64,000 nt of DNA. Origin: a virus. Of this stretch, positions 7,551 through 58,276 are shown one piece after another (the first letter of the stretch is position 1; the number at the start of each line of letters is the position of its first letter). Both the position numbers and the translations under genes were made by a program. The notes beneath the pieces were generated by a model, which saw nothing but the letters and a program-made list of their open reading frames with translations, was not told the DNA's origin and did no database searches. The stretch spans positions 1 to 64,000 of the IMG/VR virus record IMGVR_UViG_3300013111_000325; one strand, given 5' to 3'.

Positions 7551-9430
7551 TGCTATACGAACATGATACACTGCTCATAGACAAAAAGAATGAAGTGTTC
7601 ATGACGGTGCAAGCCGAACCTGGACTCGCAAGAGAATTGAGTGATTTTTTTACATTCTTTGTTCCAGGATATCGTTTCATGCCATCATATCGAAATAAGA
7701 TATGGGATGGTAAGATACGACTTTATAATCTACAAAACAAGTATCTTTATAGTGGTCTCATAGACTATGTTGAGAAGTTTGCTTCAGAACGTGAATATAA
7801 GATAGACTACAAAACAAATCCAAAAAACGTAAATGGTTATAATGAGAATGACTATGAAAGACTTGTGCGTTCTCTCAATCTTGAAATAGAACCACGAGAT
7901 TATCAGAGAGATGCATTTCTACATTCAATCAATAATGAACGTGCATTGCTACTCTCACCAACCGCATCTGGTAAATCTCTTATCATATATTTGTTGCTAC
8001 GGCACTATCAAATGAGATTGACAAATTTTAAGGCAATTGTTATAGTACCTACTACATCTCTCGTGGCACAGATGAATTCTGATTTTGCAGACTATGCAAA
8101 GAAAGATCGTTGGAAAGTTGCAGAAAATACACACATGATTTATTCAGGTCATGATAAAGTATCTGACAAACCTATATTCATATCAACTTGGCAATCACTT
8201 TATAAAATGCCTCTCAGTTATTTTTCAGATTTTGATGTAATTATAGGAGATGAATGTTTATCACCTGATACTGATATTATAATGAAAGACGGATCGTTTA
8301 AAAAAATAAAAGATATTTGTGTTGGTGATTATGTAAAAACATACAATGAAATATCAAAAGAAATAGAAAACAAACCTGTATTGAAAGTCCATAAAAATAT
8401 ATCAATAAAAGAAAAAATGTATGAAATAACATTGGATGGAATTAATAAAATTCAAATTACAGGTAATCATAAAGTCCTATTAACCAATGGAGTATGGAAA
8501 CGGGCTGATAGTCTTAAAATAGGAGATCGTATAAAAGGTTCAATAGTTACCTCAATAGTAGAATGTGCTCCTACTGATGAAGTCTATAATTTACACATTG
8601 AAGATAATCACAACTATTTCGCTAATGGTATTGTAGTATCAAATTGTCACCAATTTAAAGCGAAATCTCTGACTGCAATTATGGAGAAGGCGGTCAATAC
8701 CAAATATCGTTTTGGTACAACTGGAACACTTGACGGCACACAAATACACCGTCTTGCATTGGAAGGATTATTTGGACCTGTTTATAAAGTCACGACAACA
8801 AAGAAACTGATTGACAACAAGACACTATCACAGTTTGAGATCAAAGCATTGGTCCTGCAATATTCAGATGAGACATGTAAAGCACTCAAAGGAGCAAATT
8901 ATCAAGAAGAAATAGATTTTCTTGTATCAAATGAGAAACGAAACAACTTTATACGCAATTTAGCACTCAGTCTAAATACTAATACATTGATATTATTTCA
9001 ACTGGTTGAGAAACACGGTAGAATTCTATATAAGTTAATTAAGGATAAAACGAATGAACGACCAGTCTTTTTCGTCTATGGAGGAACCGACACAAACGAC
9101 CGAGAGCAAATTAGAGGAATCGTTGAACGAGAGTCCAATGCCATTATTGTTGCGAGTTACGGCACTTTTTCTACTGGCATCAATATTACTAATCTTCATA
9201 ATGTCATTTTTGCTTCCCCATCTAAATCTCGCATAAGAAATTTACAAAGTATAGGAAGAGGATTGAGAAAGAATGAACAAAAAAATATTGCGATATTATA
9301 TGATGTTGCCGATGATCTATCTTATAAGTCTCATAAAAACTACACTCTTAACCATTTCATTGAACGTATCAAAATATATAATGAAGAACAATTTGAATAC
9401 AAAATTCTTACAATACCAATCGGAGAATGA
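7550..9430 (+). CDS. uvsW: UvsW RNA-DNA/DNA helicase, intein-containing
   Basis: SPTASGKS Walker A; DE[intein]CH motif II; LQSIGRGLR motif VI. Confidence 0.96.
   Translation: MLYEHDTLLIDKKNEVFMTVQAEPGLARELSDFFTFFVPGYRFMPSYRNKIWDGKIRLYNLQNKYLYSGLIDYVEKFASEREYKIDYKTNPKNVNGYNENDYERLVRSLNLEIEPRDYQRDAFLHSINNERALLLSPTASGKSLIIYLLLRHYQMRLTNFKAIVIVPTTSLVAQMNSDFADYAKKDRWKVAENTHMIYSGHDKVSDKPIFISTWQSLYKMPLSYFSDFDVIIGDECLSPDTDIIMKDGSFKKIKDICVGDYVKTYNEISKEIENKPVLKVHKNISIKEKMYEITLDGINKIQITGNHKVLLTNGVWKRADSLKIGDRIKGSIVTSIVECAPTDEVYNLHIEDNHNYFANGIVVSNCHQFKAKSLTAIMEKAVNTKYRFGTTGTLDGTQIHRLALEGLFGPVYKVTTTKKLIDNKTLSQFEIKALVLQYSDETCKALKGANYQEEIDFLVSNEKRNNFIRNLALSLNTNTLILFQLVEKHGRILYKLIKDKTNERPVFFVYGGTDTNDREQIRGIVERESNAIIVASYGTFSTGINITNLHNVIFASPSKSRIRNLQSIGRGLRKNEQKNIAILYDVADDLSYKSHKNYTLNHFIERIKIYNEEQFEYKILTIPIGE
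8255..8644 (+). mobile_element. Mini-intein (130 aa, no homing endonuclease) in UvsW motif II
   Basis: Starts CLSPDT; block B ITGNH; ends VYNLHIEDNHNYFANGIVVSN followed by Cys+1; removal restores GDECHQFKAK. Confidence 0.95.
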
Positions 9431-9431
9431 T

Positions 9432-9764
9432 ATGTCTACGTATAAATACATTCATCTTACAAACGGTGATCACATCTTTACAGAATTACATTTTCCGAAA
9501 GAAAAAACGGGGTTCTTTAAATTAAAACGCCCATTAAAATTAACAATGCAAGAAGATGAAAATCACGTACACTTTGGCTTTATGCCGTGGATACCATTCT
9601 CTGATGATGAAGAAGTGCCATTACAAGCGAAATCAGTAATTACAATGGCAAATCTAAATGATGAGTATAAAGAAATGTATATAAGAGGACTAGAACATCA
9701 TACAAAAATGGAAGATGTAATAGATTTTGAAGACTCTGAAATACCTAATGTACTTTTAAATTAA
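9432..9764 (+). CDS. Conserved small protein downstream of uvsW (Sm-like fold suspected)
   Basis: GGAG RBS before ATG 9432; LTNGDHI...FMPWIPFS pattern; position between uvsW and gp55. Confidence 0.6.
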   Translation: MSTYKYIHLTNGDHIFTELHFPKEKTGFFKLKRPLKLTMQEDENHVHFGFMPWIPFSDDEEVPLQAKSVITMANLNDEYKEMYIRGLEHHTKMEDVIDFEDSEIPNVLLN

Positions 9765-9786
9765 TCATATCAAACGGGACACACCT

Positions 9787-9815
9787 ATAATAACACATTG
9801 TCAAGCATTTGTCAA
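9787..9815 (-). promoter_or_regulatory. Antisense sigma70-type promoter
   Basis: Minus strand reads TTGACA-17 bp-TATTAT with a TG extension. Confidence 0.6.
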
Positions 9816-9819
9816 GCCC

Positions 9820-9847
9820 TTGACTTTTTCATATAGTATGTTATACT
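9820..9847 (+). promoter_or_regulatory. sigma70-type promoter for gp55
   Basis: TTGACT-16 bp-TATACT with TG extension; AAGGAG RBS downstream. Confidence 0.7.
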
Positions 9848-9871
9848 GTACAATAATGAAAGGAGTTACTA

Positions 9872-10426
9872 ATGGCTAAAACAAGACACTACGTAAACAA
9901 TGCAGATTTTTTAGAAGCCCTTATTAAATATAAAGCGGACATTGAAATTGCAGAAAAAAATGAAGAAGAGAAGCCTCTACTACCTGATTATATTGGAGAG
10001 TGTTTTCTATTAATAGCACAACGATTATCTTACAGACCAAACTTCATCAACTATGTATTTAAGGATGATATGATATCCGATGGCATAGAAAATTGTTTAC
10101 AGTATGTGCATAATTTTAATCCTGAAAAGTCACAAAATCCTTTTGCATATTTTACACAGATAATTTATTATGCCTTTATTCGTAGAATTCAAAAAGAGAA
10201 AAAACATTTGTATGTGAAGTATAAAGAGATGGAGCGAATGCACTATCTTGAAGATAATGTTGAACATGGACAATATGATACCTCAGGAGAACTCATGACA
10301 GAGGTTGCATCTAATGACATGAGAATAATGATAGGTGATTTTATTGCTGAATTTGAACAGAAAAAAGCGGCCAAAAGAAAACCTAGAAAAAATGTTGCAG
10401 AATATGCAGGAATATACTCTATATAG
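9872..10426 (+). CDS. gp55: Late-transcription sigma factor gp55
   Basis: HYVNNADFL, DMISDGIENC and NPFAYFTQIIYYAFIRRIQKEKK motifs. Confidence 0.97.
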   Translation: MAKTRHYVNNADFLEALIKYKADIEIAEKNEEEKPLLPDYIGECFLLIAQRLSYRPNFINYVFKDDMISDGIENCLQYVHNFNPEKSQNPFAYFTQIIYYAFIRRIQKEKKHLYVKYKEMERMHYLEDNVEHGQYDTSGELMTEVASNDMRIMIGDFIAEFEQKKAAKRKPRKNVAEYAGIYSI

Positions 10427-10454
10427 AACTTCTCTTGTGAGAGTATTAGGAGAA

Positions 10455-10901
10455 ATGAAAATAGCACACATTTATATAGGTGAAGGTCTTCCTAAAAAAG
10501 AAGTTCAATCTGCTACTTTAACAACTACGGGTTTTGTTGGAGATAAGCAACGATGGAAAAGACATGGGCCTCCTTTGCGAGATATTGTAATATGGAGTTT
10601 AACTCGTATTGAAGAATTAATGAATGAGGGACATCCTATTTTTCCTGGCGCATGTGGGGAAAATTTAGTTATTGAAGGAAAGGAATATTTTAAATTGAAA
10701 AAGGATGATATTTTAACCATAGGAGATTCTATATTAAAACTAACTTTTCCTGCCGATCCTTGTAATCAAATTAAAGAATTTTTTACTTCTAATATGAATC
10801 TGGTGCATGATAAAATACCTAGATGGTGTTGTGATGTACTTTATGCAGATGAAAAAGAGATGTGTGTAAATGATCAAATAACACTACTTCATAAAAAATG
10901 A
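10455..10901 (+). CDS. MOSC-domain (YiiM-like) protein
   Basis: AGGAG RBS before ATG 10455; GLPK, GFVGD, PGACGENL and PADPC motifs. Confidence 0.75.
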   Translation: MKIAHIYIGEGLPKKEVQSATLTTTGFVGDKQRWKRHGPPLRDIVIWSLTRIEELMNEGHPIFPGACGENLVIEGKEYFKLKKDDILTIGDSILKLTFPADPCNQIKEFFTSNMNLVHDKIPRWCCDVLYADEKEMCVNDQITLLHKK

Positions 10902-10908
10902 AAATAAT

Positions 10909-11988
10909 ATGAAAATAGCATTAATTACGGATACCCACTGGGGTGCTAGGAATGACAATAAAATATTTGCTGATTATTTTTCTAGATTTTATGACAATAT
11001 ATTTTTTCCTTATATCGATGACCATAATATTAAAACATGCATACATTTAGGTGATGTCGTTGATAGAAGAAAATACATTAACTTTAAGACCGCAAATGAT
11101 TTGAGAGAAAATTTTGTAGAACGATTATGGGAGATGAATGTTGACACACATATGATTGTCGGCAATCATGATATCTACTACAAGAATACAAATCAGGTCA
11201 ATTCTCTTCATGAACTTTTTAGCACCGCAGATCATATTCTTGAACCTTGGATCTATGCAAGCCCACGAGAATTTGATTTTGATGGTACTAAAATTCTCAT
11301 GATGCCGTGGATTAATTCAGATAATTATACAGAATGCATGGAAGCAATCAATAATTCTTCTGCACAAATTATGATGGGACATCTTGAAATCAATGGTTTT
11401 GAGATGCATCAACATGGTCAAATATGTGATGCAGGTTTTAGTGCAGACATGTTTTCTAAATTTGATTTAGTTTACAGTGGGCATTTTCATCACAAATCTA
11501 CACAAGGTGGTATCACATATCTTGGTAATCCTTATGAAATAACTTGGTCTGATTTTGGAGATGCAAGAGGTTTTCATGTGTTTGATACGAATACACGAGA
11601 ACTGGAATTTATACAAAATCCGTATCACATGTTTTATAAGATTTATTACGATGATAACAAAGAAACATTTGAGACTATTAAAGAAAGAGATTACGGTATT
11701 TACACAGGAACAATTGTTAAGGTTATTGTTACTGAAAAGAACAATCCGTATTGGTTTGACACAATGCTTGATGAGTTATACAAAGCGGATGTCGCAGATG
11801 TTTCTGTGGTTGAGAATGTTGATCTTGAATTTGAAAATGATGAATCTGTAGTTGATGAAGCCGAAGATACTTTGACTATTTTGAGTAATTACATTGATGG
11901 TTTGAATATTCAAAAGAATAAAAAAGAACTTGACAATCTTATAAGAACACTTTACAATGAGGCATTGGACTATGAAATCACAGCCTGA
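10909..11988 (+). CDS. gp47: Recombination nuclease gp47 (Mre11-like)
   Basis: DTHWG, HLGDVVDRRK, GNHD and SGHFH metallophosphoesterase motifs. Confidence 0.96.
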   Translation: MKIALITDTHWGARNDNKIFADYFSRFYDNIFFPYIDDHNIKTCIHLGDVVDRRKYINFKTANDLRENFVERLWEMNVDTHMIVGNHDIYYKNTNQVNSLHELFSTADHILEPWIYASPREFDFDGTKILMMPWINSDNYTECMEAINNSSAQIMMGHLEINGFEMHQHGQICDAGFSADMFSKFDLVYSGHFHHKSTQGGITYLGNPYEITWSDFGDARGFHVFDTNTRELEFIQNPYHMFYKIYYDDNKETFETIKERDYGIYTGTIVKVIVTEKNNPYWFDTMLDELYKADVADVSVVENVDLEFENDESVVDEAEDTLTILSNYIDGLNIQKNKKELDNLIRTLYNEALDYEITA

Positions 11989-12332: not shown

Positions 12333-14045
12333 ATGATTTTATTTTCGCAGGTGAGATGGAAAAATCTGCTATCAACAGGTCAGGTTTTTACAGAGGTTGA
12401 TCTAAAAAGAAATCCAACAACTCTGATTGTTGGTGAAAATGGTTCTGGAAAATCTACGATACTTGATGCACTCACATTCAGTCTGTTCGGTAAAGCATTT
12501 CGTAACATAAAAAAACCACAACTCATCAATTCAATTAATGAACAGAATTGTATTACTGAAGTAGAATTTTCTATAGGTAAAAAACATTTTCTTGTTCGTA
12601 GAGGTATCAGGCCAAATATTTTTGAGATTGAAGTTGATGGTGTCATGATAAATCAAGATTCTAAAGCCAGAGACTATCAAGAGCATCTTGAAAAAAATAT
12701 TCTCAAACTCAATTACAAATCTTTTACACAAATCGTAATACTTGGTAGTTCATCTTTTGTTCCTTTTATGCAATTGAGGACAAATGACCGCCGAGTAATT
12801 ATTGAAGACTTACTTGATATTGAGGTGTTTTCTACAATGAATTTACTTCTCAAAAATAGAGTATCAGAACTGAAGCAAGATATAAATCTCAATGAACTTG
12901 AAAGATCTAAAACTGAAAATGCGATAGAGTTACAAGAAGATTATATCTCAAAGATGAAGCAGAACAACATACAATTAATTTCTGCTAATCAAGAAAAAAT
13001 AGATAAGTCAAATAAAGATATTGCAACATATAATTTACAGATTGCAGATATCGAAACACGGATAGAAGCATTGTATAAACTGGTCGAAGATTTCGACCAG
13101 CAACAAAATAAGCAGAGAACGTTAGAAAAATATGAAGATGATATAAACAAAAACCTCAAAAAGGTAGAAAAAGAAATAGAATTCTATCGTCAAAATACAG
13201 ATTGTCCAGTATGTAAACAGACAATTGATGAGGATCATAGAGAATGTGAAATAAAAGAAAAGCGAAAAAAGAAAACAGAACTTGATGATGCGGTTACAAA
13301 AATTGATGAAGAATTACAATTATCAATTAAGTTAATTCAGGAGATGACCGAAACACAAAAATCGATTACAGATTTTCAGAGTGAGATTACAAAACATAAT
13401 GCATCTATTTCCGCAATCAATCAGTACATACAAAAGGTCAATGAAGAGATACAGTCATTAAATGAGAAAGGTGCAGATGTCACAGATGCATCAAAGAAAC
13501 TCAAAAAATTAAAGACTGATCAAAAAAATCTCTTGTCATTGAAAGAGCAATATAGTAATATGTCTTCAATATATGACGTTGCGAGTGTGCTTCTCAAAGA
13601 CGGTGGCATCAAAACAACCATCATAAAAAAATACTTGCCGATTATGAATAAATTAATTAACAAGTATTTGGCATCTATGGATTTTTATGTATCGTTTAAT
13701 CTCGATGAGAACTTTAACGAGACAATTAAATCTAGATTTCGTGATGAATTCACCTATGCATCATTTAGTGAAGGTGAAAAAATGAGAATCGACTTGGCCT
13801 TGCTTTTCACTTGGAGAGCAATTGCCAAGTTGAAAAATAGTATGAGTACGAATCTACTCGTTCTTGATGAAGTGTTTGATAGTTCATTGGATGAAGATGG
13901 TACAAGTGACTTTCTCAAAATACTTCATTCGCTTGGTAATGAATCGAATGTTTTTATAATTAGTCACAAGGGTGAAGTCTTGTACGACAAATTTAAAAGC
14001 ATGATTAAATTTGAAAAACATAAAAACTTTAGCAGGATAGTATGA
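12333..14045 (+). CDS. gp46: Recombination ATPase gp46 (Rad50-like)
   Basis: GENGSGKS Walker A; CPVC zinc hook; FSEGEKMRIDL signature; LVLDEVFDSSLD. Confidence 0.97.
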   Translation: MILFSQVRWKNLLSTGQVFTEVDLKRNPTTLIVGENGSGKSTILDALTFSLFGKAFRNIKKPQLINSINEQNCITEVEFSIGKKHFLVRRGIRPNIFEIEVDGVMINQDSKARDYQEHLEKNILKLNYKSFTQIVILGSSSFVPFMQLRTNDRRVIIEDLLDIEVFSTMNLLLKNRVSELKQDINLNELERSKTENAIELQEDYISKMKQNNIQLISANQEKIDKSNKDIATYNLQIADIETRIEALYKLVEDFDQQQNKQRTLEKYEDDINKNLKKVEKEIEFYRQNTDCPVCKQTIDEDHRECEIKEKRKKKTELDDAVTKIDEELQLSIKLIQEMTETQKSITDFQSEITKHNASISAINQYIQKVNEEIQSLNEKGADVTDASKKLKKLKTDQKNLLSLKEQYSNMSSIYDVASVLLKDGGIKTTIIKKYLPIMNKLINKYLASMDFYVSFNLDENFNETIKSRFRDEFTYASFSEGEKMRIDLALLFTWRAIAKLKNSMSTNLLVLDEVFDSSLDEDGTSDFLKILHSLGNESNVFIISHKGEVLYDKFKSMIKFEKHKNFSRIV

Positions 14046-14575
14046 CTGAAAATAAAGTAGAAGTTCATCCTCTTGTAACAGAAGATCACGAACTAATCAC
14101 AACTAAACTTGATGAGTTTAATTTTGATAGAGATGATGCAGAAAAACTTGAAGACACATTAATCAACTGCATGGATTTTTATCGTGGTCTTGGACTGTCA
14201 GCAAATCAATTAGGAATAAATGCAAGAGTATTTGCTATGGTGCATGAAGAACAACCAATGGTGATGTTTAATCCAAAAGTTGTGTCGGCAACAGAAGAAA
14301 AATATCTCATGAAAGAAGGATGTCTCACATGGTTCGGTCTTTTTCCAAAAGTATTAAGACCTCAAGGAGTAACAATAAACTGGAAAGATAAAGAAGGTCA
14401 AGAATTTTCAGGTAGTTTCATTGATTTATCCGCTAGAATTATACTTCATGAATATGATCACCTAAATGGTTATACTTTCTTTGATAGAGCAAAACCAATG
14501 CACATGTCACAGGCCAAAAAACGAAGAAAAATATATATCAGAAAGGCTAAACGACAAGCGAAAGAAATAGTATAA
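14042..14575 (+). CDS. def: Peptide deformylase
   Basis: GLGLSANQLG, EGCL and HEYDHLNG motifs. Confidence 0.93.
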   Translation: MTENKVEVHPLVTEDHELITTKLDEFNFDRDDAEKLEDTLINCMDFYRGLGLSANQLGINARVFAMVHEEQPMVMFNPKVVSATEEKYLMKEGCLTWFGLFPKVLRPQGVTINWKDKEGQEFSGSFIDLSARIILHEYDHLNGYTFFDRAKPMHMSQAKKRRKIYIRKAKRQAKEIV

Positions 14576-15023: not shown

Positions 15024-15172
15024 TGATGAATTGGACTAAGGTTCACCTAGAAACTATGAATGTTTTGCAATTGAAAGAATTGAAAAGATATGTTGATGAA
15101 ATCCTTAAACGAAAAATTGAACAATCCAAACGGCTCCCAGATGAAGACTTGGCAGAAAGGCATAGACCTTGA
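15023..15172 (+). CDS. Small hypothetical protein (49 aa, not in the ORF track)
   Basis: TAATG coupling to the upstream gene; MMNWTKVHLETMNVLQLKELKRYVDEILKRK... Confidence 0.45.
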   Translation: MMNWTKVHLETMNVLQLKELKRYVDEILKRKIEQSKRLPDEDLAERHRP

Positions 15173-16280
15173 TACTCTTTTAGCACACACCAAAAGATTT
15201 GAGAACTACAATAAGTATAGTTGCTCACCTTTTTCAGAAATGAAAAAGAATGATATTGCCGAACATCTGAGCAATGGTACGGTAGTCAATCTTAAAGGTT
15301 CTACATTCACTATTCAGGAATGTAAAGTTCGTTCTCCTATTTACATGTATCAAAAAATACCGATAGGGTATCGTGAACCTGGTGACCTTAAAATTGACAG
15401 ATTTGCTTTTACAGATTATTCACATGAAAGTCAGCAAGAGTTTTACGATTATATTATACGCAATCATAGAACTGATGTTTGGATATGTTCCTGGGCCGAA
15501 GATACTGCAACAAATGATATTTTTGATACGCAATTAGGTTTGCAGAAAGTTGGCACAAAGGTTACTACATTTGGTGAGTTAATTGTGTATTGGTTTTTAC
15601 CATACTCAAAAGATATGTTTGGTGAAAGCAGAAAACATCCAAAAGTGCCTGACACAGAATACCATAATCTTGTAAAATTAAAATTGCCTACTGATATCTC
15701 ACATCTTATATCTGCAATACAAGAGAAAATTTCTAAACTTCCTGTATTTACTAACCATTATTCAAACTATAATAAACGCAAATCTTGGTCAGCAGTATCT
15801 TTAAGAGGGCACAGTCCGAAACCAGAGTTTATTACAGACCCAGCAGAAATGAGTAAGAAATGGAAAGAGGAAAATAAAGATGTGTTATTTGAAATGCAAG
15901 ATACATATCTATATGATGACTTTCCTGAAGTGAGAGAATTGGTGAAGATGCTCAAAGCAGAAGAGATACATCGTGTGCGATTTATGAAATTAAATGCTGG
16001 AGATGGTGAATTAGACCGACATACTGATTTGGTTGATCCGAAAGGTGGATTGGCAGATGGTAAGTTAATGCGAATACATTTTCCTATCATCACAAGTGAC
16101 AAAGTTTTGTTTGAGTCCTGGGACTTGACGGGGCATATACACTGTGCTAATATGAGGGTTAATGAAGCATGGATGTTGGACACTAGAAAACCTCATCGTG
16201 CAGTAAATGAAGGAACAGAAGATAGAATACATTTAGTAATTGACATTGTTTCAAATGAACGATCTAGAACATTATTATGA
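15141..16280 (+). CDS. Two-domain protein: unknown (GNAT-like?) N-terminus plus 2OG-Fe(II) oxygenase of the Asp/Asn beta-hydroxylase-like family
   Basis: RVRFMKL, HTD (HxD), RIHFPI, KPHRAVN and RIHLVID motifs; probable start MKTWQKG at 15141. Confidence 0.75.
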   Translation: MKTWQKGIDLDTLLAHTKRFENYNKYSCSPFSEMKKNDIAEHLSNGTVVNLKGSTFTIQECKVRSPIYMYQKIPIGYREPGDLKIDRFAFTDYSHESQQEFYDYIIRNHRTDVWICSWAEDTATNDIFDTQLGLQKVGTKVTTFGELIVYWFLPYSKDMFGESRKHPKVPDTEYHNLVKLKLPTDISHLISAIQEKISKLPVFTNHYSNYNKRKSWSAVSLRGHSPKPEFITDPAEMSKKWKEENKDVLFEMQDTYLYDDFPEVRELVKMLKAEEIHRVRFMKLNAGDGELDRHTDLVDPKGGLADGKLMRIHFPIITSDKVLFESWDLTGHIHCANMRVNEAWMLDTRKPHRAVNEGTEDRIHLVIDIVSNERSRTLL

Positions 16281-16888
16281 ACATATTTTTTCTTGACAAA
16301 GATCCTGTATTTGCGGCACGTTATCATTGTGATAAACATGTGCCCAAGATGATTGTTGAGTATGCTCAACTTATGAGTACCGCTCACCGATTAATTGATG
16401 GTGAACCATATGAAGCAAAAAACAAGCGAGGTCACAAACTGACTAGATGGAGATTATCAGATGACCGAGAACATAAATTATATTTTGCCTCCCATTTTAA
16501 GCATCCTTCTAATATTTGGGTTCGGTCTAGCACTCAACATTATGATTGGTTGTATGAGTTATTTAATGCTTTGTGTGCTGAATTCACGTTGCGATATGGA
16601 AAGTTTCATAAGACAGACCTTGACTTACGTGAATATATTAAAAGAAGACCTGACAATCTTCAAGACAATGGATGGTCAGATCCACCACTCGCAATGCCAG
16701 AACAGTACAAATTAAACAAAGCAATTCCTTCTTATCGTAATTTCTATGCTACTGAAAAACGTAGATTTGCGACATGGAAAACGGAAAAACCTCACTGGTA
16801 TGATTGGTGGTGTATGATGAATGACACTTTTAATTCTAAATCAATAGAGGAACATGTACACGTTAAAGGTGAAGGATGGATTGATTAA
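16277..16888 (+). CDS. Pyrimidine-dimer DNA glycosylase (DenV)-related protein
   Basis: MNIFFLD...HCDKHVPKMIVEYAQLMSTAH and HPSNIWVR motifs. Confidence 0.75.
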   Translation: MNIFFLDKDPVFAARYHCDKHVPKMIVEYAQLMSTAHRLIDGEPYEAKNKRGHKLTRWRLSDDREHKLYFASHFKHPSNIWVRSSTQHYDWLYELFNALCAEFTLRYGKFHKTDLDLREYIKRRPDNLQDNGWSDPPLAMPEQYKLNKAIPSYRNFYATEKRRFATWKTEKPHWYDWWCMMNDTFNSKSIEEHVHVKGEGWID

Positions 16889-17916
16889 TGAAAAACCATT
16901 TTGTTATTGTCGCTGGCTATCTTGATACTGATGAAAAAACCAAGATGGCCGTTGACTTTATTGAGAAGTTACGAAAAGTAGAAAATATATCAATTTGTTA
17001 TTCTACTCACCACTCCAATATTCCTCAAAAATTAATAGAACTTACAGATTTTATTGTTTACAATAAGTATAACCCAATTCTTAACTGGGACATATGTTCT
17101 GAATATACCGAGAGATTTGGTTGTTCAATACAAGAGCATCCTGCTCTTGACAAAGAAGATATATTTTTTCCTCAACCATATCATGGCTACGCACATTTAA
17201 TTTCTCTATGTGACGCCGTAGCAATAGGAACAAATACAGGTTATAAAACTTTTTCTTTTATGAATTTTGATGTTGTAGATTATTGTATTGATCAATTACC
17301 ACTGCATATTAAAGAGATAAAAAAGAATAAGGTTGATGCTATTTTTTATCCGTATCTAATACAAAATATTAAAGCAACTGTAGGTAGCACAGAATTTTTT
17401 ACTTTTAGTCTAAAATTTGCTCAAGAAATTTATAAGTATAGAGATTTTAGGCATTATCAAACAATTCATGATCCAGTTCTAGAAAGATTTGTAAATCTTG
17501 TATGTAAATCAAAAGGATTAAAATGGATTCTTATTGAAAATAAATTCTCTGAAAATGGCACAATAGGAAAATTAAATTTTGGTAAAGGTGATATGTCAAA
17601 AGTTCCATTTTGGGTCCCATACGAAACTATTTGGGATGGTGATAAAAGATTTGAGATATGTATCATACCATTTAAGACAAAAAATAAATATCAACTTGTA
17701 TTTGGTATAAATTCTATGTTTTCGGAATATGATGAAGACATAAAAGAGATTAGAATATTTGCAGATGATAAACAATTAAAAAATGATTGGGAATTACACA
17801 CAATACAAAAACCTTGTAGATTAAAAATCTCTTATAAAAATAAAATTACAAGAGATTTTGTTCTCAATGACGAAAGACACTTTGGCAAAGTTAGAATGAA
17901 AGTGAGAAAACCATGA
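16888..17916 (+). CDS. Hypothetical protein, possibly glycosyltransferase-related
   Basis: Long AT-rich ORF; only weak GT-A-like features. Confidence 0.45.
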   Translation: MKNHFVIVAGYLDTDEKTKMAVDFIEKLRKVENISICYSTHHSNIPQKLIELTDFIVYNKYNPILNWDICSEYTERFGCSIQEHPALDKEDIFFPQPYHGYAHLISLCDAVAIGTNTGYKTFSFMNFDVVDYCIDQLPLHIKEIKKNKVDAIFYPYLIQNIKATVGSTEFFTFSLKFAQEIYKYRDFRHYQTIHDPVLERFVNLVCKSKGLKWILIENKFSENGTIGKLNFGKGDMSKVPFWVPYETIWDGDKRFEICIIPFKTKNKYQLVFGINSMFSEYDEDIKEIRIFADDKQLKNDWELHTIQKPCRLKISYKNKITRDFVLNDERHFGKVRMKVRKP

Positions 17917-18701
17917 CTACATTATGGAAAGAAACAGAAGAAGAATACCTTGAACTTGTAAAAGATTGGACAGACCCATATCCTACTCCACAACTTATTG
18001 AGTATGATGGCGTTCTTGTAGTAAGAGATGATTTGCTCAATGCAGGTTCAAAAGTTCGTTTCGTAGATTATCTTATTGGTTCAAATAAAAACGTAAATGA
18101 ATGGGTATTTGGTTCATGTCCTGCTACAGGATATGCACAAATAAGTTTACCTATTGCATGTAAACGTCATAACAAAAAAGCAGTATTGTTTATGGCAAAA
18201 CGTAATAAAAAAAATTTTACTGAGTATCAAAAACGTGGCATAGAATTAGGTGTTGATTATCATTGGGTAGAAAATGGTATGTTGACAGTCACACAAAAAC
18301 GTGCAAAAGACTATGCCGCCAAATCATCTGATAGGATGGTTTTGCCTTTAGGACTTGAACATCCGACAGTTCTTGGGTCAATAATCAAAGTTGCTAGAAG
18401 CCTACCAGTTACACCAAATGAAGTATGGACTGTAGGTTCAAGCGGAACATTAAATAGAGGCTTGCAACTTGCTTGGCCTGATGCTACAATACATGTTGTA
18501 AGTGTGGGGCACACCATGAATAAACGAGAGATAGGTAGAGCAATTTATCATCGTAGTAAATACAGGTTTGATCAACCTGTAAAAGAGAATGAAATGCCAC
18601 CTTTTCCTTCCGCTCCTACATATGATGCAAAAGCATGGAAGTTTATTCAAGAACTTTCAGATAAAAAAGGTACAACATTACTTTGGAATGTCGGAGCATA
18701 A
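17913..18701 (+). CDS. PLP-dependent enzyme, fold type II (ACC deaminase / D-cysteine desulfhydrase-like)
   Basis: VVRDDLLNAGSKVR (PLP lysine), VGSSGT phosphate loop and PTYDAKAW motifs. Confidence 0.8.
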   Translation: MTTLWKETEEEYLELVKDWTDPYPTPQLIEYDGVLVVRDDLLNAGSKVRFVDYLIGSNKNVNEWVFGSCPATGYAQISLPIACKRHNKKAVLFMAKRNKKNFTEYQKRGIELGVDYHWVENGMLTVTQKRAKDYAAKSSDRMVLPLGLEHPTVLGSIIKVARSLPVTPNEVWTVGSSGTLNRGLQLAWPDATIHVVSVGHTMNKREIGRAIYHRSKYRFDQPVKENEMPPFPSAPTYDAKAWKFIQELSDKKGTTLLWNVGA

Positions 18702-19234
18702 TGGCACACACAGAACAATTAGAATATGTAAAATCTTTAAAATTAGTATTTCCTCATTATTTCAGATATAGAAAAGTTTTAGAAGTTGGTAGTTTAGATA
18801 TTAATGGTACCGTAAAAGTATTTTTTGATAATTGCGATTATACAGGTTTAGATCTAGGTGAAGGTAAAGGTGTCGATCTGATTGAAGAAGGTCAAAATTA
18901 TGATGCACCAGATGAAACTTATGATACAGTTCTTTCCACTGAATGCTTTGAACATAATCCTTACTGGAAAGAAACCTTTTTGAATATGATCAGGTTATGT
19001 AAAAAGAATGGTCTCGTATTTTTCACCTGTGCAACCGATGGTAATCCTGAGCATGGTACAGTAAATAGACTTCCAGGTGATGCCCCATTAGTTATTGAAA
19101 AGGGCTGGAATTATTATAAAAATTTGAATAAACACGATTTCAATATTTTCCCATTAGATGATTTATTCTTGACTTTTAGTTTTTCTAATAATATAATAGC
19201 ACATGATCTTTATTTCTTTGGTATAAAAAAATGA
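18701..19234 (+). CDS. Class I SAM-dependent methyltransferase
   Basis: VLEVGSLDING and YDTVLSTECFEH motifs; TAATG coupling. Confidence 0.85.
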   Translation: MAHTEQLEYVKSLKLVFPHYFRYRKVLEVGSLDINGTVKVFFDNCDYTGLDLGEGKGVDLIEEGQNYDAPDETYDTVLSTECFEHNPYWKETFLNMIRLCKKNGLVFFTCATDGNPEHGTVNRLPGDAPLVIEKGWNYYKNLNKHDFNIFPLDDLFLTFSFSNNIIAHDLYFFGIKK

Positions 19235-20835
19235 AACATTTTTATGAACGTAACGATTATGTTTTAAATCATGAAGTCAACAAAACATTTGAAGAAATTC
19301 TTTGGATGTCAGATGATGAATTTCGTCAATGGTTGACTGATATGAGAAAGACAATTGCATATGCTTGGGATGAACTTGGATTGCCACCAAGAGTTGGTTG
19401 GAATGAAAAAGATATCATAGACCAATTCAATAAGATGTCATCGTTTCCTGTTCATGAGATGGACAAAGGTGATAACATAGTTCGTAATACATCTGTCATC
19501 GGTAATGCTTGTAATCAGTTTTTTCCGACAATGATGAAGACTAGAATTAATTATTCTAAAAATGATGATGGTCTTTCAATTTACGACCATTTTGTAGATG
19601 ATAAACTATCTGAAAAAGTTTACAAGTATTCACATCGTCACTTCAAGCGTGATAGTTTTTATGAATATTCACAAACTGTTCCGACAAATGCTGAGACTAA
19701 AGATTTTTTGATATCAGCAAAAACTGGTAAAGAATGGATTCAAAATTTTGAAAAAAGTTTTAGAAATAAAAAAGTAACAATAAGAAAAAAAGGTAAAGAG
19801 GGTGCAGAAAAAGGTGTTGTATTTCAAGAAGATGTTGAATATGATTATTGGATCGCACCTCATTCAGAAGATACAGAATATACTGGTCATAATAAAGATC
19901 TTGTAGGAGTAAAATGGTGTACACTTACAAAAAATGAAATTCACGAATTGAATATTCCTGAAAAATGTTTAGTCAATGCTAAACTTGATGAAAATGATTT
20001 ATTTCGTATTCGTTTGTTCAAGTTTGGTCAGAGAATATTTCCTGTAGGTTTTAAGGCATTTCGTATTTCATGGTGTCAGTATGCAGTAAACTTTCCACCT
20101 CTTACCGCTAAATATTTGTATGAGAGATACACTGAACACATTAAAGAGCAGGATGTTATCAACATTTATGATCCTTCTAGCGGTTGGGGCGGTCGTATTC
20201 TTGGGGCTATGGCTGTCCGTGATGACCGTAATATCCACTATATTGGGACCGACCCAAACACGGATCATACGATTGAAGAACTGGGTATTACGAAGTATGA
20301 GTACCTTGCAAACTTTTTTAACGAAAATAAATATGGATCTCTTTTCCCGCACAACAATACCTATGAAATTTATCAACTCGGTTCGGAAGAAATCAGAAAT
20401 AATAAGCAGTTTCAAACGTACAGAGGAAAACTTGATATCGTTTTCACAAGTCCTCCATATTTTGCAAAAGAAGCCTATTCAGAAGACGAAGAACAATCTT
20501 ACAAAAAGTTCCCACAATACCAGTCTTGGGTAGACGGTTTTTTGAGACCAACTCTTGAAACATGTATTGAGTACCTAAGACCAAACAGATATTTGCTTTG
20601 GAATATTGCTGATGCAAAGTTTGGTCCTGACATGTTACCTCTTGAAGAAGACAGTAACAAGATATTGCGTGAGCATGGTATGGAGTTTGTTGAAGTTGTG
20701 AAGATGACATTGGCTTGGATGCCAGGCGGTAATCGTATTGGTGAGGATGGTAAGCCAAGTTACAAGAATGCAGTACAAGTTGAAGGTAAGTGGTTTAAAT
20801 ACGAACCGATATTTGTCTGGAAAAAACCAGCGTAA
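19231..20835 (+). CDS. DNA amino-methyltransferase-like protein (N6A/N4C type)
   Basis: YDPSSGWGGR SAM-binding motif and FTSPPYF catalytic motif. Confidence 0.8.
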   Translation: MKHFYERNDYVLNHEVNKTFEEILWMSDDEFRQWLTDMRKTIAYAWDELGLPPRVGWNEKDIIDQFNKMSSFPVHEMDKGDNIVRNTSVIGNACNQFFPTMMKTRINYSKNDDGLSIYDHFVDDKLSEKVYKYSHRHFKRDSFYEYSQTVPTNAETKDFLISAKTGKEWIQNFEKSFRNKKVTIRKKGKEGAEKGVVFQEDVEYDYWIAPHSEDTEYTGHNKDLVGVKWCTLTKNEIHELNIPEKCLVNAKLDENDLFRIRLFKFGQRIFPVGFKAFRISWCQYAVNFPPLTAKYLYERYTEHIKEQDVINIYDPSSGWGGRILGAMAVRDDRNIHYIGTDPNTDHTIEELGITKYEYLANFFNENKYGSLFPHNNTYEIYQLGSEEIRNNKQFQTYRGKLDIVFTSPPYFAKEAYSEDEEQSYKKFPQYQSWVDGFLRPTLETCIEYLRPNRYLLWNIADAKFGPDMLPLEEDSNKILREHGMEFVEVVKMTLAWMPGGNRIGEDGKPSYKNAVQVEGKWFKYEPIFVWKKPA

Positions 20836-20900
20836 CCCAAACAAAAATGACCCTCCGAGAATCCGGAGGGAAAAAATGCCGAAAAAGTTGGCTCAAAAAT
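20836..20900 (+). repeat. 65-bp dispersed A-tract repeat, copy 2
   Basis: Ungapped match to 4783-4847; contains the inverted repeat CCCTCCG-N6-CGGAGGG. Confidence 0.85.
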
Positions 20901-20910
20901 AAATAGAACA

Positions 20911-21348
20911 ATGATTAAAAATCTTTATTCTGCAAAACATGATGATAAATGGATTAAAATTATTGATAATATTGACTTTGATGTAAAACAATATCAAAAT
21001 TTTTATAATTATGTAGGTTATCAATTTTTACCAAAATTATACGACTATTCTATTATAGAGGGTAACAAAGCAAAATTTGTTATGGCTTATTTAGATGGAA
21101 AACAAGTAAGCATGAAAAATATTAGGGCATTATTTGATTTTGTGTGTCATACAATATTTCCTAGTTTCATGCAATGGACAATTTTAAATCGAAATCATAT
21201 GATTCGTGATAAAAAGGAAAATTTTTTTTATTATCACAACGACCTCAAACCTGAAAATTTTTTAGTGATTAAAAATAAATTTATGTTAATAGATATTGAT
21301 GCCATGTGTCTTACTAACATAAATGATAAAATATTTAAAATATATTAA
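20911..21348 (+). CDS. Minimal protein-kinase-like phosphotransferase
   Basis: HNDLKPENF catalytic loop and LIDID metal-binding motif. Confidence 0.6.
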   Translation: MIKNLYSAKHDDKWIKIIDNIDFDVKQYQNFYNYVGYQFLPKLYDYSIIEGNKAKFVMAYLDGKQVSMKNIRALFDFVCHTIFPSFMQWTILNRNHMIRDKKENFFYYHNDLKPENFLVIKNKFMLIDIDAMCLTNINDKIFKIY

Positions 21349-21512: not shown

Positions 21513-23888
21513 ATGGATATTAGAGAATCAAAATCAATGTTGGCTAAACTGCTAGCCACAGAAAATATCAAAGTTGAACACGGTAATTATGAAACTGCCG
21601 CCTTTGATCCTAAAAAACGTGTGCTTTATCTTCCTATTTTCAAGTGGATGGACGGTGATGTCTATGACCTTCTTGTTCTTCATGAAGTGAGTCATGCACT
21701 TAATACCCCTGCTGATGGTTGGCATTCTTCTGCTAGTTCAAAAGGCAAAGGTTATAAGTCATTTCTTAATGTCACCGAAGATGCTCGTATTGAGAAGAAA
21801 ATCAAGCGAAGGTATCCTGGTGCTTCCAAATCGATGGTATTTGGGTATCGTGAATTGATGAAAAATGATTTCTTTGGTATCAGTCATGTAAATGTTGATA
21901 AACTGCCTCTCATTGACCGCATCAATCTTCACACAAAAGGTGGTGCTTCAATGGGCATTTCTTTTACCGAAGATGAAATGAAATGGGTTGATGAACTGAT
22001 GTCTCTTGAAACTTTTCCTGAGATTGTTGAGTTCACTGACCGACTTTATAATTATTGTGCAGAAAATGAAAGCATGACCGATGAACATGATTTCAACATG
22101 TTTTCAAGTGAAGGTTATGGTGAAGATGATGAAGAGTTTGAACCTGGTATGACTGGTGAGACACCATTTGAGTGGACTGAAGATTCTGATGAATCAATGT
22201 CTCAGTCAGGTATGCCTCAAAGTTCCGATGAAAATGAGGGTTCTGAAAGTGACAATTCTGATGGTCCTTCTGCTGAAACTGATGAATCATCAAAAGGTTC
22301 AGAAGAAACAAATTCTTCTTCTGGTAATTCACCTGCTGATAAATTTAAAGATGAATTTGAGAATGATGAGTCTGATGGTCAAGTCAATCCGTCAAACACT
22401 GTAGGTGCTGAAGGTGGTGTCAATACTGACATTAATCCGAATGCAGTTGCTGGTCCTCGTTCAATTACTGATGAATTTTTTCGCAGAAAAGAAACAGAAT
22501 TGAATGACAGTATTGATAGTGACAAAAAATATATTTATGCTAATCTTCCAAAACCAGTTCTTGAAAATATTGTTATTGATTACAAAAAATTGGCTCAGTT
22601 ACATGATAAGTATTATAATCAAGAACAACATTCAGGATATTGGGGCACAATGACACCATCAGAGTCATGGTCAACCGCTCCAAAACGATATAAGGAATTC
22701 CGTGAGCAAAATAAATCAATCGTTGATTATCTTGCCAAAGAGTTTGAGATGAAGAAACGTGCAGATGAGTACAAACGTACTGCATCGGCAAATACTGGTG
22801 TTCTTGAAACATCAAAACTGTATTCTTACAAGTATTCTGATAATCTTTTCAAGCGAGTGGCTACGGTTGCTAGTGGTAAAAATCATGGTCTTGTCATGTT
22901 TATTGACTGGTCTGGTTCAATGAGTGGAAACATGGCCGGTACAGTTGAACAAATGATGATACTTGTGATGTTCTGCAAGAAAGTAAATATTCCATTTGAT
23001 GTTTATGCTTTTACTGATAGAATATGGCGCACAAATAATGAACTTAATTCCTTTGATTCTGCCGATGAAAAGCCCAAATGGGATTATCAACCTGGTGATT
23101 TTTGTGAGCAAGAACATTTCAATCTCATGCAGTTGTTTTCAAGTAATATGTCAAATATTGAATTCAACAAAGCATGTTGGAATGCTATTAACATTCGTGA
23201 TTATTACAACGGTAAAGTCAATTGGCACTATAATGGTGGTAAGAGTCCTTCAATCCCTAGTCAATACTCTTTGGGTGGTACACCGTTGAATGCCGCCATT
23301 GTTGCAAGTCATGATCTGGTTCGCAAATTTAAGCGTGACCATAATGTTCAGATTGTCAATACTGTATTTCTTACAGATGGTGATTCAAATCAAGCAGGTT
23401 GTTATCTTGATTCAGAAGGCAAAGAACAACATATTGGTCGTAATGATCATTTAACAATCCGTGATACACTATCAAAATCAGAGATTGTACGATCCCAAAC
23501 AATGGGTTGGTCTGCTTCTCACCGAGCAACTACTGAATTGTTATTCAATTCTTTGCGTAAAGCAACTGGCGCAAATATCATCGGTTTCTTTCTTGTCAAT
23601 CGTCTTGATCGTCACAGAGCAGGTTATTACTCTACTGATAACAAATCATTTGAGAACATGATGGATTCATGGCGTAAAGAAAAATGCATTGTTGCTGAAA
23701 TTGACGGTTACGATAATCTCTATATAATTAAAGATGGTTCAGATTTGCAGATTGAAGAAAAATCAGAACTTGATAAGGTTGATGCTGGTTCTAAAAAATC
23801 TGCAATTCGTACCGCTTTCAAAAAAATGAACCGTAAAAAACTACGCAACCGTGTAGTTCTTAATAAATTCATTGAACAAGTAGCATAG
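21513..23888 (+). CDS. Metallopeptidase-motif / vWA protein (CobT-like partner of a MoxR ATPase)
   Basis: HEVSH and NVTEDARIE motifs; acidic linker; MIDAS DWSGSM, GGTPL and FLTDG. Confidence 0.85.
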   Translation: MDIRESKSMLAKLLATENIKVEHGNYETAAFDPKKRVLYLPIFKWMDGDVYDLLVLHEVSHALNTPADGWHSSASSKGKGYKSFLNVTEDARIEKKIKRRYPGASKSMVFGYRELMKNDFFGISHVNVDKLPLIDRINLHTKGGASMGISFTEDEMKWVDELMSLETFPEIVEFTDRLYNYCAENESMTDEHDFNMFSSEGYGEDDEEFEPGMTGETPFEWTEDSDESMSQSGMPQSSDENEGSESDNSDGPSAETDESSKGSEETNSSSGNSPADKFKDEFENDESDGQVNPSNTVGAEGGVNTDINPNAVAGPRSITDEFFRRKETELNDSIDSDKKYIYANLPKPVLENIVIDYKKLAQLHDKYYNQEQHSGYWGTMTPSESWSTAPKRYKEFREQNKSIVDYLAKEFEMKKRADEYKRTASANTGVLETSKLYSYKYSDNLFKRVATVASGKNHGLVMFIDWSGSMSGNMAGTVEQMMILVMFCKKVNIPFDVYAFTDRIWRTNNELNSFDSADEKPKWDYQPGDFCEQEHFNLMQLFSSNMSNIEFNKACWNAINIRDYYNGKVNWHYNGGKSPSIPSQYSLGGTPLNAAIVASHDLVRKFKRDHNVQIVNTVFLTDGDSNQAGCYLDSEGKEQHIGRNDHLTIRDTLSKSEIVRSQTMGWSASHRATTELLFNSLRKATGANIIGFFLVNRLDRHRAGYYSTDNKSFENMMDSWRKEKCIVAEIDGYDNLYIIKDGSDLQIEEKSELDKVDAGSKKSAIRTAFKKMNRKKLRNRVVLNKFIEQVA

Positions 23889-57464: not shown

Positions 57465-58276
57465 AAATACATAAGCATGGTTTTGTGAAGTTATTAGAAG
57501 TGATGGGTAATGATGAGGAAGTTGAAAATGCCGCCCGAATTAGTTACGGTGAAGGTACACGGAAGGTTAACCAAACAAGAAACCTAATTCGTTATTTGAT
57601 GAGACACAAACATACATCACCATTTGAGATGTGCGAAGTGAAGTTTCATATTAAACTACCAATATTCGTGATGAGACAACTTGTTAGACATAGGACTGCT
57701 AACATAAACGAATACTCTGGTCGGTACTCATTAATGAGTGATGAATTTTATTTGCCTGCTGAAGCCGATGTACAAGAACAATCAGAAACAAACAATCAAG
57801 GTCGTGGTCAAGATTTGGATCAAGAAAATAAAATTCTTGTTTTAAGTCGCATGGTTGCAACTACCGATCAGGCAAAAGAGTGTTATAGACAAATTGCTAA
57901 CCCTACTCTTCTAGATGGATTTTATGAAGGGTTTAAGGGTATTGCAAGAGAAATTGCAAGAACAGTTTTACCAGTTTCAAATTACACCGAGTGTATTTGG
58001 AAAATAGATTTACATAACTTTTTTCATTTTGCAAAATTACGTATGGATGCTCACGCACAAAAAGAGATACAAGATTACGCAAGTGCAATGTATGAATTGG
58101 TAAAACCACATTTTCCTATTTGTTGTGAAGCCTTTGAAGACTATATTTTAAACTCAAAGACATTTTCCGCCAAAGAGATGAGGATTATCAAAGAGAATCT
58201 AAATGGAAGTTGGGTAATGGCAAAATATGGTCTATCAGAACGAGAATCAAAAGAATTTTTAGAAAAATTAAAATAA
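57461..58276 (+). CDS. thyX: Flavin-dependent thymidylate synthase
   Basis: HTSPFE and RHRTANINEYSGRY signature. Confidence 0.97.
   Translation: MKIHKHGFVKLLEVMGNDEEVENAARISYGEGTRKVNQTRNLIRYLMRHKHTSPFEMCEVKFHIKLPIFVMRQLVRHRTANINEYSGRYSLMSDEFYLPAEADVQEQSETNNQGRGQDLDQENKILVLSRMVATTDQAKECYRQIANPTLLDGFYEGFKGIAREIARTVLPVSNYTECIWKIDLHNFFHFAKLRMDAHAQKEIQDYASAMYELVKPHFPICCEAFEDYILNSKTFSAKEMRIIKENLNGSWVMAKYGLSERESKEFLEKLK

Follow-up and report, generated by a model that had tools for sequence, protein, structure and literature searches.

To our knowledge, all amino-acid- and polyamine-type hypermodifications of phage DNA begin from 5-hydroxymethyl pyrimidines. The closest described relatives of the system considered here are gp52 of Pseudomonas phage M6 and gp226 of Salmonella phage ViI, which in the available text of PMC8989533 are purified pyridoxal 5′-phosphate (PLP)-dependent decarboxylases that convert, in DNA, C-alpha-glycinyl-thymine to 5-(2-aminoethyl)uracil and O-seryl-thymine to 5-(2-aminoethoxy)methyl-deoxyuridine (5-NeOmdU). 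A second kind of described system is that in which a methylase-fold enzyme creates a handle on the base for further phage enzymes, as in the methyltransferase (MT) plus TET/5mYOX phage systems (PMC8256090; 10.1101/2023.12.21.572611), or itself transfers a non-methyl group, as with CmoX, a marine cyanophage methylase homolog that yields carboxymethylcytosine (PMC12783734), insofar as the accessible portions of these reports describe them. Here we analyze a 64-kb stretch of DNA (hereafter the window), the first part of a 116,897-base IMG/VR virus record (IMGVR_UViG_3300013111_000325; CheckV completeness ~52%), which displays a run of six open reading frames (ORFs) on the + strand. We hold, on balance, that three of them, encoding a methylase-like protein (ORF6), a PLP enzyme related to gp52 (ORF4) and an AspH-type 2-oxoglutarate (2OG)/Fe(II) oxygenase (ORF1), jointly make a DNA base modification that goes beyond plain methylation. 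This reading is built on their domain families with conserved catalytic residues, on conserved linkage among relatives, on natural fusions and on the homology of ORF4 to gp52.

ORF4 (17913..18701; 262 aa) is a short fold-type-II PLP enzyme that is comparable to gp52 in length (both ~260-280 aa) and is joined with it in phrog_7093 (1.2e-35 for ORF4 and 2.2e-159 for gp52). The two proteins also have in common an SSGT phosphate loop and a C-terminal PFP..YD.KAW..FWN signature. K47 of ORF4, which together with G178 is invariant in 71 sequences, aligns with gp52 K36, the residue proposed as the Schiff-base lysine in the available part of PMC8989533; a Gly/Ser-rich phosphate loop accompanies this lysine in ORF4. 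Comparison of the ORF4 family with gp52 by hhalign recovered full-length profile homology (probability 98.8, E 5.7e-17, 221 columns) at a pairwise identity of only ~23%. With Z held equal, the family hidden Markov model (HMM) assigns 73.5 bits to gp52, and no solved PALP enzyme exceeds 28.8 bits. With a relaxed threshold, ORF4 recovers, after three nearer phage records, 48 Pseudomonas and 9 Bordetella records and a few others, the matches all lying on a gene annotated as ‘threonine dehydratase’, which in phage M6 is gp52.

The AlphaFold2 (AF2) model of ORF4 has the short fold-type-II PLP fold at high predicted accuracy (mean predicted local distance difference test score, pLDDT, 96.2), with 9jqf, 1j0a and 4d8w as the top Foldseek matches (query-normalized TM-score, TMq, of 0.76 for 1j0a and 0.77 for 4d9e), and the nearest solved folds are CJ0600, the 1-aminocyclopropane-1-carboxylate (ACC)-deaminase homolog 1j0a, D-cysteine desulfhydrase and threonine deaminase. 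An earlier note, made from the letters of this DNA alone, had described ORF4 as a truncated ACC-deaminase-like enzyme; given its matches to 1j0a-type folds, this label is right at the level of the fold, but it did not extend to family membership at the level of sequence. ORF4 itself matches nothing in Pfam or NCBIfam, a profile of its close relatives (A1) matches nothing in the PDB, phmmer searches of the PDB with ORF4, ORF6 or ORF2 returned nothing useful, and the wider family profile (A2), while reaching PALP enzymes, finds 1j0a only at E 5.4e-4. Cluster look-up returned only the name ‘hypothetical protein’ for eight relatives of ORF4, and we found no literature on Cj0600, its top fold match.

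Where ORF4 departs from gp52 is in the company it keeps. As described in the accessible text of PMC8989533, gp52 follows a 5-hydroxymethyldeoxyuridine (5-hmdU) DNA kinase and an amino-acid:DNA transferase and acts on thymine, whereas the partners of ORF4 are an amino-methylase-like S-adenosylmethionine (SAM) enzyme and the AspH-type oxygenase, in a record with neither an ADDT nor a ThyA-type match. Company of the gp52 kind (a 5-hmdU DNA kinase with an aGPT-Pplase/AADT) was not found: ADDT (PF18724) has no match in the 116,897 bases, which are ~52% of the expected genome, or among the neighbors, and no search for the kinase was made.

ORF6 (19231..20835; 534 aa) combines a conserved N-terminal region (~residues 1-270), which matched no known family, with a class-I amino-methyltransferase-like domain. 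Motif I (YDPSSGWGGR) and, after it, motif IV (FTSPPY) are invariant in 19/19 aligned relatives, so that ORF6 bears the pairing of a SAM-binding motif I with an (S/D/N)PP(Y/F) motif IV that marks the N6/N4 amino-methyltransferases. The AF2 model (pLDDT 86.5) adopts the class-I methyltransferase fold, and its best structural matches are the amino-methyltransferases Trm11, TrmN and Trm14 (Z 15.2-15.7, in a nearly tied field of generic methyltransferases), with METTL5 and N6AMT1 also recovered and TYW2 not among the matches listed. The earlier account of ORF6 as a 534-aa SPPY amino-methyltransferase with a long N-terminus thus holds for length, motifs and fold; its score against N6_N4_Mtase (PF01555), in contrast, stays below the cut-off (23.6 against 26.7 bits) and covers only profile positions 2-61, with a six-frame search giving 26.6 bits on ORF6 and 27.2 bits with neighboring pieces. 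Relative to the orphan or ParB-fused N6/N4 phage methylases (PF01555, CcrM-like), ORF6 shares the class-I SAM fold, motif I and (S/D/N)PPY, and in gp1 of phage R6L and related proteins, a methylase of the CcrM-like type is joined to the ORF4-type PLP domain; ORF6 differs in its sub-threshold PF01555 score, in having motif I before motif IV, in its 270-aa N-terminal region and in its linkage to a PLP enzyme. A predicted complex of ORF6 and ORF4 scored 0.00 in a run made without controls and weighs neither way. In two related loci (L064 and L065), the ORF4 relative is followed by two tandem ORF6-family genes (8740-10359 and 10296-11933; 532-545 aa), i.e., a duplication of the methylase-like component.

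ORF1 (15090..16280; 396 aa) had been described as a two-domain 2OG-Fe(II) oxygenase, and this is borne out: its C-terminal residues 231-387 match the cupin domain Asp_Arg_Hydrox (PF05118) at 36.5 bits against a cut-off of 22.6, and its N-terminal 230 residues form a domain with no family match. The start formerly assigned to it (15141) is an internal ATG in the correct frame, and the gene may begin 51 bases earlier, at 15090. The HxD...H metal ligands characteristic of the PF05118 oxygenases are present as H311-x-D313 and H369; across 40 family members, three fusion proteins among them, these residues and R379 are conserved at 95% or more. The Atlas clusters recovered for ORF1 are all PF05118. 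Among 50,697 phage records, ORF1 matches a single protein, gp4 of Mycobacterium phage LilMcDreamy (residues 131-383, 29% identity), whose gene comes after gp3, an ADDT amino-acid:DNA transferase (PF18724, 2.7e-12). The two genes before these are gp1, ParB-like by annotation, and gp2, a phrog_6059 member annotated as queuine tRNA-ribosyltransferase with a weak Tet_JBP match. In Rhodococcus phage Tonitrus, a similar set of ParB, Tet-JBP, aGPT-Pplase and kinase genes is called a thymidine hypermodification system in the accessible part of PMC11955845. Given the LilMcDreamy and Tonitrus gene sets, ORF1-type oxygenases accompany enzymes that attach amino acids to DNA. As a separate observation, gp1-gp4 of LilMcDreamy (L084:1-3759) look like a thymidine hypermodification cluster that has gone unannotated, with the oxygenase gp4 as its tailoring step.

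The linkage of these genes was examined in 80 related loci, collected by profile (ORF4 identity 56-94%) and scored with family HMMs, of which the 43 with at least 4 kb on either side of ORF4 were taken as eligible and a partner was counted if within 4.5 kb. Across the eligible loci, both ORF1 and ORF6 lie near ORF4 in 24, ORF6 only in 10 and neither in 9; collapsing at 95% ORF4 identity leaves 27 clusters that split 14, 6 and 7, respectively. ORF6 thereby adjoins ORF4 in 34/43 loci, and ORF1 never occurs without ORF6 in the eligible set, with three shorter loci (L011, L012 and L082) showing ORF1 and ORF4 without ORF6 in the available sequence. The same pattern is apparent in the first seven related IMG/VR loci, where, as far as each sequence extends, none of ORF1, ORF4 and ORF6 is missing, and ORF2, ORF3 and ORF5 come and go; ORF4 directly follows ORF1 in L009 and L010. 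The gene linkage that the earlier note had proposed to check is accordingly found for ORF1, ORF4 and ORF6, which elsewhere are also fused, and its six-gene coupled cluster contracts to these three as the conserved unit, with ORF2, ORF3 and ORF5 varying among relatives.

Independent of gene order, the PLP domain is fused to the same partners in single chains. We found 1039 ORF4 relatives among 1.84 billion representatives (588 at E ≤1e-10), and the best 150 of these include 35 long forms of at least 330 aa. BLAST with the window proteins detected an ORF6-like methylase domain in 11/35 and an ORF1-like domain in 3/35, and Pfam scans of 30 of the 35 recovered N6_N4_Mtase in 14, YunG in 8 (above the Pfam cut-off in one), Asp_Arg_Hydrox in 3, DUF3102 in 2 and ParB_N in 1, with 4/30 lacking a partner family. 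The ORF6-like and PLP domains are joined in P0310, P0312, P0314, P0317 and P0318, and the ORF1-like domain is fused in P0310, P0317 and P0313; P0310 (1081 aa) and P0317 (1138 aa) accordingly display all three, in the order methylase, oxygenase, PLP. Searches with these two proteins found such a triple fusion in metagenome contigs only, not in IMG/VR or genome contigs, and there it is a single uninterrupted ORF of 1082 aa (L092, near a serine recombinase) or 1074 aa (L094). Behind the L094 fusion comes a type III restriction-modification (R-M) pair (L094:5218-9164; Mod, PF01555, 7.5e-40; Res, ResIII, 1.1e-17), a hint that the module also exists in cells or mobile elements, in a defense context.

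A further architecture involves a second, differently ordered class of N6_N4 methylases, in which the PLP domain is inserted between the motif-I and motif-IV parts (P0361, P0400, P0419 and P0450). The virus analyzed here has an uninterrupted counterpart of such a methylase outside the window (G000:C1:105322-106230; also L086 and L088), with its motif-I half before its motif-IV half. Among cultured phages, gp1 of Erythrobacter phage R6L (vB_EliS-R6L), 807 aa as translated, has N6_N4_Mtase and PALP in one chain, and Microcystis phage Mae-JY30 has a PLP gene directly behind an N6_N4 methylase gene. In the available part of the R6L paper, gp1 is treated as a single-domain CcrM-like methylase, and the PLP part therefore went unnoticed there. 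Neighboring genes and two-domain fusions together define the minimal recurrent unit as a methylase-like protein plus a PLP enzyme, with the oxygenase as a frequent third member.

We accordingly offer the following scheme, in which we infer that DNA is the substrate and, beyond this, which group is transferred, how the steps follow one another and what product results. ORF6 would flip out a base after replication and alkylate its exocyclic amine (N6 of adenine, N4 of cytosine or N2 of guanine) with a group derived from SAM, which, on the most economical reading, would be the 3-amino-3-carboxypropyl (acp) moiety. This transfer is proposed because a PLP enzyme needs a primary alpha-amine and because the minimal pair is precisely a methylase-like protein and a PLP enzyme. 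Methyltransferase-fold enzymes are known to transfer acp, as TYW2 does, or aminopropyl, as does spermidine synthase; alternatively, then, SAM might be decarboxylated first and an aminopropyl group transferred in the manner of the latter enzyme. On the amino acid now attached to the base, ORF4 would most likely carry out the decarboxylation that gp52 performs on glycinyl-thymine, leaving a cationic aminopropyl chain, after which ORF1, where present, would hydroxylate the side chain and ORF5, where present, could methylate it. The idea, already put forward in the earlier note, of a base-borne group that is tailored by the PLP enzyme and the oxygenase gains real support from the kinship of ORF4 with gp52 and from the position of an ORF1 homolog beside an ADDT. 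Acp or aminopropyl as the specific chemistry is a tentative proposal. Equally provisional is its wider form, under which a widespread family of marine T4-like phages, joined here and there by other phages and by mobile elements, may use a DNA acp-/aminopropyl-transferase to make a new class of base with acp, and then aminopropyl, on an exocyclic amine of A, C or G, optionally hydroxylated.

A logical parallel to this scheme lies in RNA. In the synthesis of wybutosine in tRNA-Phe, TYW2 moves the acp group of SAM, TYW5, a cupin-type 2OG oxygenase, hydroxylates the chain and TYW4 methylates it; ORF6, ORF1 and ORF5 would take these three parts, respectively. The likeness is one of logic, and the wybutosine pathway differs in its tRNA substrate and in having no PLP step. 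The MT plus TET/5mYOX systems and CmoX, as they appear in the accessible portions of the reports on them, likewise resemble the module in that a methylase-fold enzyme makes a base handle that is elaborated further, but they differ in acting on cytosine C5 with C5-methylase folds and TET-type oxygenases.

Several observations weigh against a joint modification pathway of this kind. ORF6 keeps every hallmark of an ordinary amino-methyltransferase, its sequence giving no sign of acp over methyl, and its closest solved folds are tRNA N2-methylguanosine (m2G) methylases, which would be compatible with an RNA target. The family to which ORF4 belongs has its documented chemistry on thymine, not on an amine-alkylated base, gp52 acting within a 5-hmdU/kinase/transferase pathway. 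An ORF4 relative stands with neither an ORF6- nor an ORF1-type neighbor in 9/43 eligible loci, on account of which the PLP enzyme is not tied to methylases alone, and ORF1 is absent from 10/34 loci holding ORF6. Finally, the viral record is only ~52% complete.

Of the other explanations, the one that survives best takes ORF6 for an ordinary orphan N6-methyladenine (m6A) or N4-methylcytosine (m4C) methylase directed against host restriction, with ORF4 and ORF1 being auxiliary metabolic enzymes for free amino acids or SAM by-products, linked to it by co-regulation only. That ORF6 holds all the classical methylase motifs fits this view, as does the setting of the genes, a variable island with metabolic genes (peptide deformylase here; ornithine transcarbamoylase (OTCase), orotidine monophosphate (OMP) decarboxylase and ThyX in relatives) in a phage where ATGA/TAATG overlaps are common (17/76 junctions). 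Co-regulation, however, leaves unexplained the fusion of the PLP domain to two methylase classes, its insertion inside a methylase and the triple fusion, and ORF4 is far nearer to the DNA-acting gp52 than to solved metabolic PALP enzymes in the bit scores given above. We therefore regard this explanation as unlikely.

Another explanation would have ORF4 itself attach the amino acid, in the manner of cysteine synthase, by adding an aminoacrylate formed from serine or O-acetylserine to an exocyclic amine flipped out and activated by the methylase-like domain, with SAM serving for methylation or in a structural role. The insertion of the PLP domain next to methylase motif IV would fit such a shared active site, plant relatives of cysteine synthase make beta-(heterocyclyl)alanines, and in the PDB the ORF4 family profile matches beta-replacement enzymes best, namely O-acetylserine sulfhydrylases and TrpB. 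Foldseek, in contrast, puts ACC-deaminase and D-cysteine-desulfhydrase types first, and ORF6 strictly retains its SAM-binding motif I. With the nearest characterized relative, gp52, being a decarboxylase in the available text of PMC8989533, this beta-replacement route appears rather improbable.

We give only a slim chance to the module modifying RNA (tRNA or rRNA) or protein, in analogy to the acp-based tRNA modifications. Wybutosine synthesis does join an acp transferase, a 2OG hydroxylase and SAM methylases, and the tRNA m2G enzymes Trm11, TrmN and Trm14, along with METTL5 and N6AMT1, head the structural matches of ORF6; but the fusion partners of the PLP domain include ParB_N-containing and CcrM-like DNA methylases, the triple fusion adjoins a type III R-M system, and both the characterized homolog of ORF4 and the neighbors of the ORF1 homolog act on DNA. 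That ORF4 serves a thymidine hypermodification of the M6/ViI type, with a kinase and a transferase in the unsequenced half of the genome and ORF6 unrelated, is suggested by its gp52-family membership, the ~52% completeness of the record and the ThyX and YunG genes directly before the ORF4 relative in L051, but is very improbable given 116,897 bases with no match to ADDT and none to a ThyA-type synthase or hydroxymethylase (ThyX only) and the methylase-PLP fusions that it would not explain.

The loci in which an ORF4 relative lacks an ORF6 neighbor have other genes in its place. A ~457-aa weak glycosyltransferase-like gene follows the ORF4 relative in L043 and L071, an ornithine/aspartate carbamoyltransferase does so in L012, and in L051, ThyX and YunG-family genes directly precede the ORF4 relative. 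The slot taken in such relatives by an ornithine/aspartate carbamoyltransferase or OMP-decarboxylase-family gene (L012:8777-9760; L011:4174-4779) differs in content from one to the next, pointing to the site as a variable island for genes of nucleotide and amino-acid metabolism. YunG-family genes (PF24585; ~145-155 aa) stand directly before the ORF4 relative in 13/80 loci (L051:7589-8020, L074:7469-7933, L055:7477-7947 and 10 further loci), with none in this genome, and 8/30 of the scanned long forms carry a YunG-family domain on the N-terminal side of the PLP domain. Seven sequences of the YunG family share 51 invariant columns, and its profile has no significant match in the PDB.

The remaining three genes of the run are facultative, being either optional neighbors or, possibly, accessory tailoring genes. 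ORF2 (16277..16888; 203 aa) firmly matches phrog_624, ‘DNA binding protein’ (1.6e-49), and adjoins the module in L004 and L007 only. Its former description as DenV-like is not supported: the likeness to Pyr_excise (PF03013) is weak, at 18.2 bits against a cut-off of 23 (E 0.0034), and there is no sequence match to endonuclease V in the PDB. ORF3 (16888..17916; 342 aa), previously left unassigned, indeed has no Pfam, PHROG or NCBIfam match; it belongs to a viral family that is possibly of glycosyltransferases, a lead that comes from its nearest named Atlas clusters, which are glycosyltransferase-like with scores <0.9. It diverges fast, being 31-45% identical in L004, L005 and L007 against 88-94% for ORF4 in the same loci. 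ORF5 (18701..19234; 177 aa) is, as had been proposed, a small class-I SAM methyltransferase (Methyltransf_23, 32.3 bits; phrog_32762, 1.9e-64); its start is most likely the ATG at 18701, though a TTG at 18683 is also open, and among the 80 related loci it is present in L005 and L009 only.

The wider setting is that of a phage genome with a G+C content of 31-39% and nearly all genes on the + strand. Upstream of the run, the gene for a recombination nuclease of the gp46/SbcC type (12333-14045) overlaps by ATGA with that for a peptide deformylase (14042-14575; PF01327, 3.7e-33), and downstream lies a 791-aa phrog_459 protein (21513-23888). The gp46 homolog is nearest to the Methylophilales phage Melnitz group (50.8% identity), followed by T4-like cyanophages (~48%), which points to an uncultured marine T4-like myovirus as the source. 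In nucleotide sequence, nothing close to the 6-kb region turned up: 8 of 50,697 phage records align, each over at most 5% of the query. ThyX (57488-58117; PF02511, 2.5e-56) is the sole thymidylate synthase found in the 116,897 bases, in which synthases and hydroxymethylases of the ThyA type have no match.

All six ORFs of the earlier note exist on the + strand, and the five junctions between them are, in gene order, ATGA, TAATG, ATGA, TAATG and ATGA, as it had claimed in outline. Five overlaps in series are unusual, yet overlap as such is weak evidence for a common function, with junctions of these two types at 17/76 positions in a crude + strand ORF set. The overlapping run ends at a G+C-rich hairpin (20851..20870, no strand assigned; an 8-pair stem with 6 G-C pairs) 16 bases past the ORF6 stop codon; as its T-run lies on the minus strand, it is unsupported as a terminator of the + strand cluster. 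Scans for promoters and terminators came out near the shuffle expectation (72 against 55.9 +/- 8.2 and 5 against 4.3, respectively). Directly after the cluster is a 145-aa ORF (20911-21348) with no family match and no counterpart in the 80 related loci, in which HNDLKPENF resembles by eye the catalytic loop of protein kinases; weighed as a possible kinase partner, it was set aside on those two negatives.

As a kind, the module belongs with the phage DNA hypermodification clusters, but its predicted product would be new chemistry. We found no description in the literature of a system combining a methylase with a gp52-type PLP enzyme, although a mention in the 2013 aGPT-Pplase paper or in supplements is possible, and none of acp or aminopropyl groups in phage DNA. 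The terms PLP, pyridoxal, decarboxylase and oxygenase are all absent from the searchable portion of PMC12783734, and in the accessible part of PMC13458397, PLP-dependent decarboxylases appear in the introduction only and methyltransferases are not mentioned. If the proposal is correct, no earlier hypermodification of the amino-acid or polyamine type would have been built without a C5-hydroxymethyl pyrimidine, and the module would constitute a second route to such bases, from SAM and an exocyclic amine, extending the gp52-type PLP enzymes past thymine. Two cultured phages, R6L and Mae-JY30, carry methylase-PLP versions and open the idea to direct test. The families are large at 90%-identity clustering (944 relatives for ORF4 and 2220 for ORF6, on contigs of up to ~250 kb), and many ocean viruses could therefore carry the modification, with possible effects on restriction evasion, on sequencing bias and on nanopore base-calling of marine viromes.

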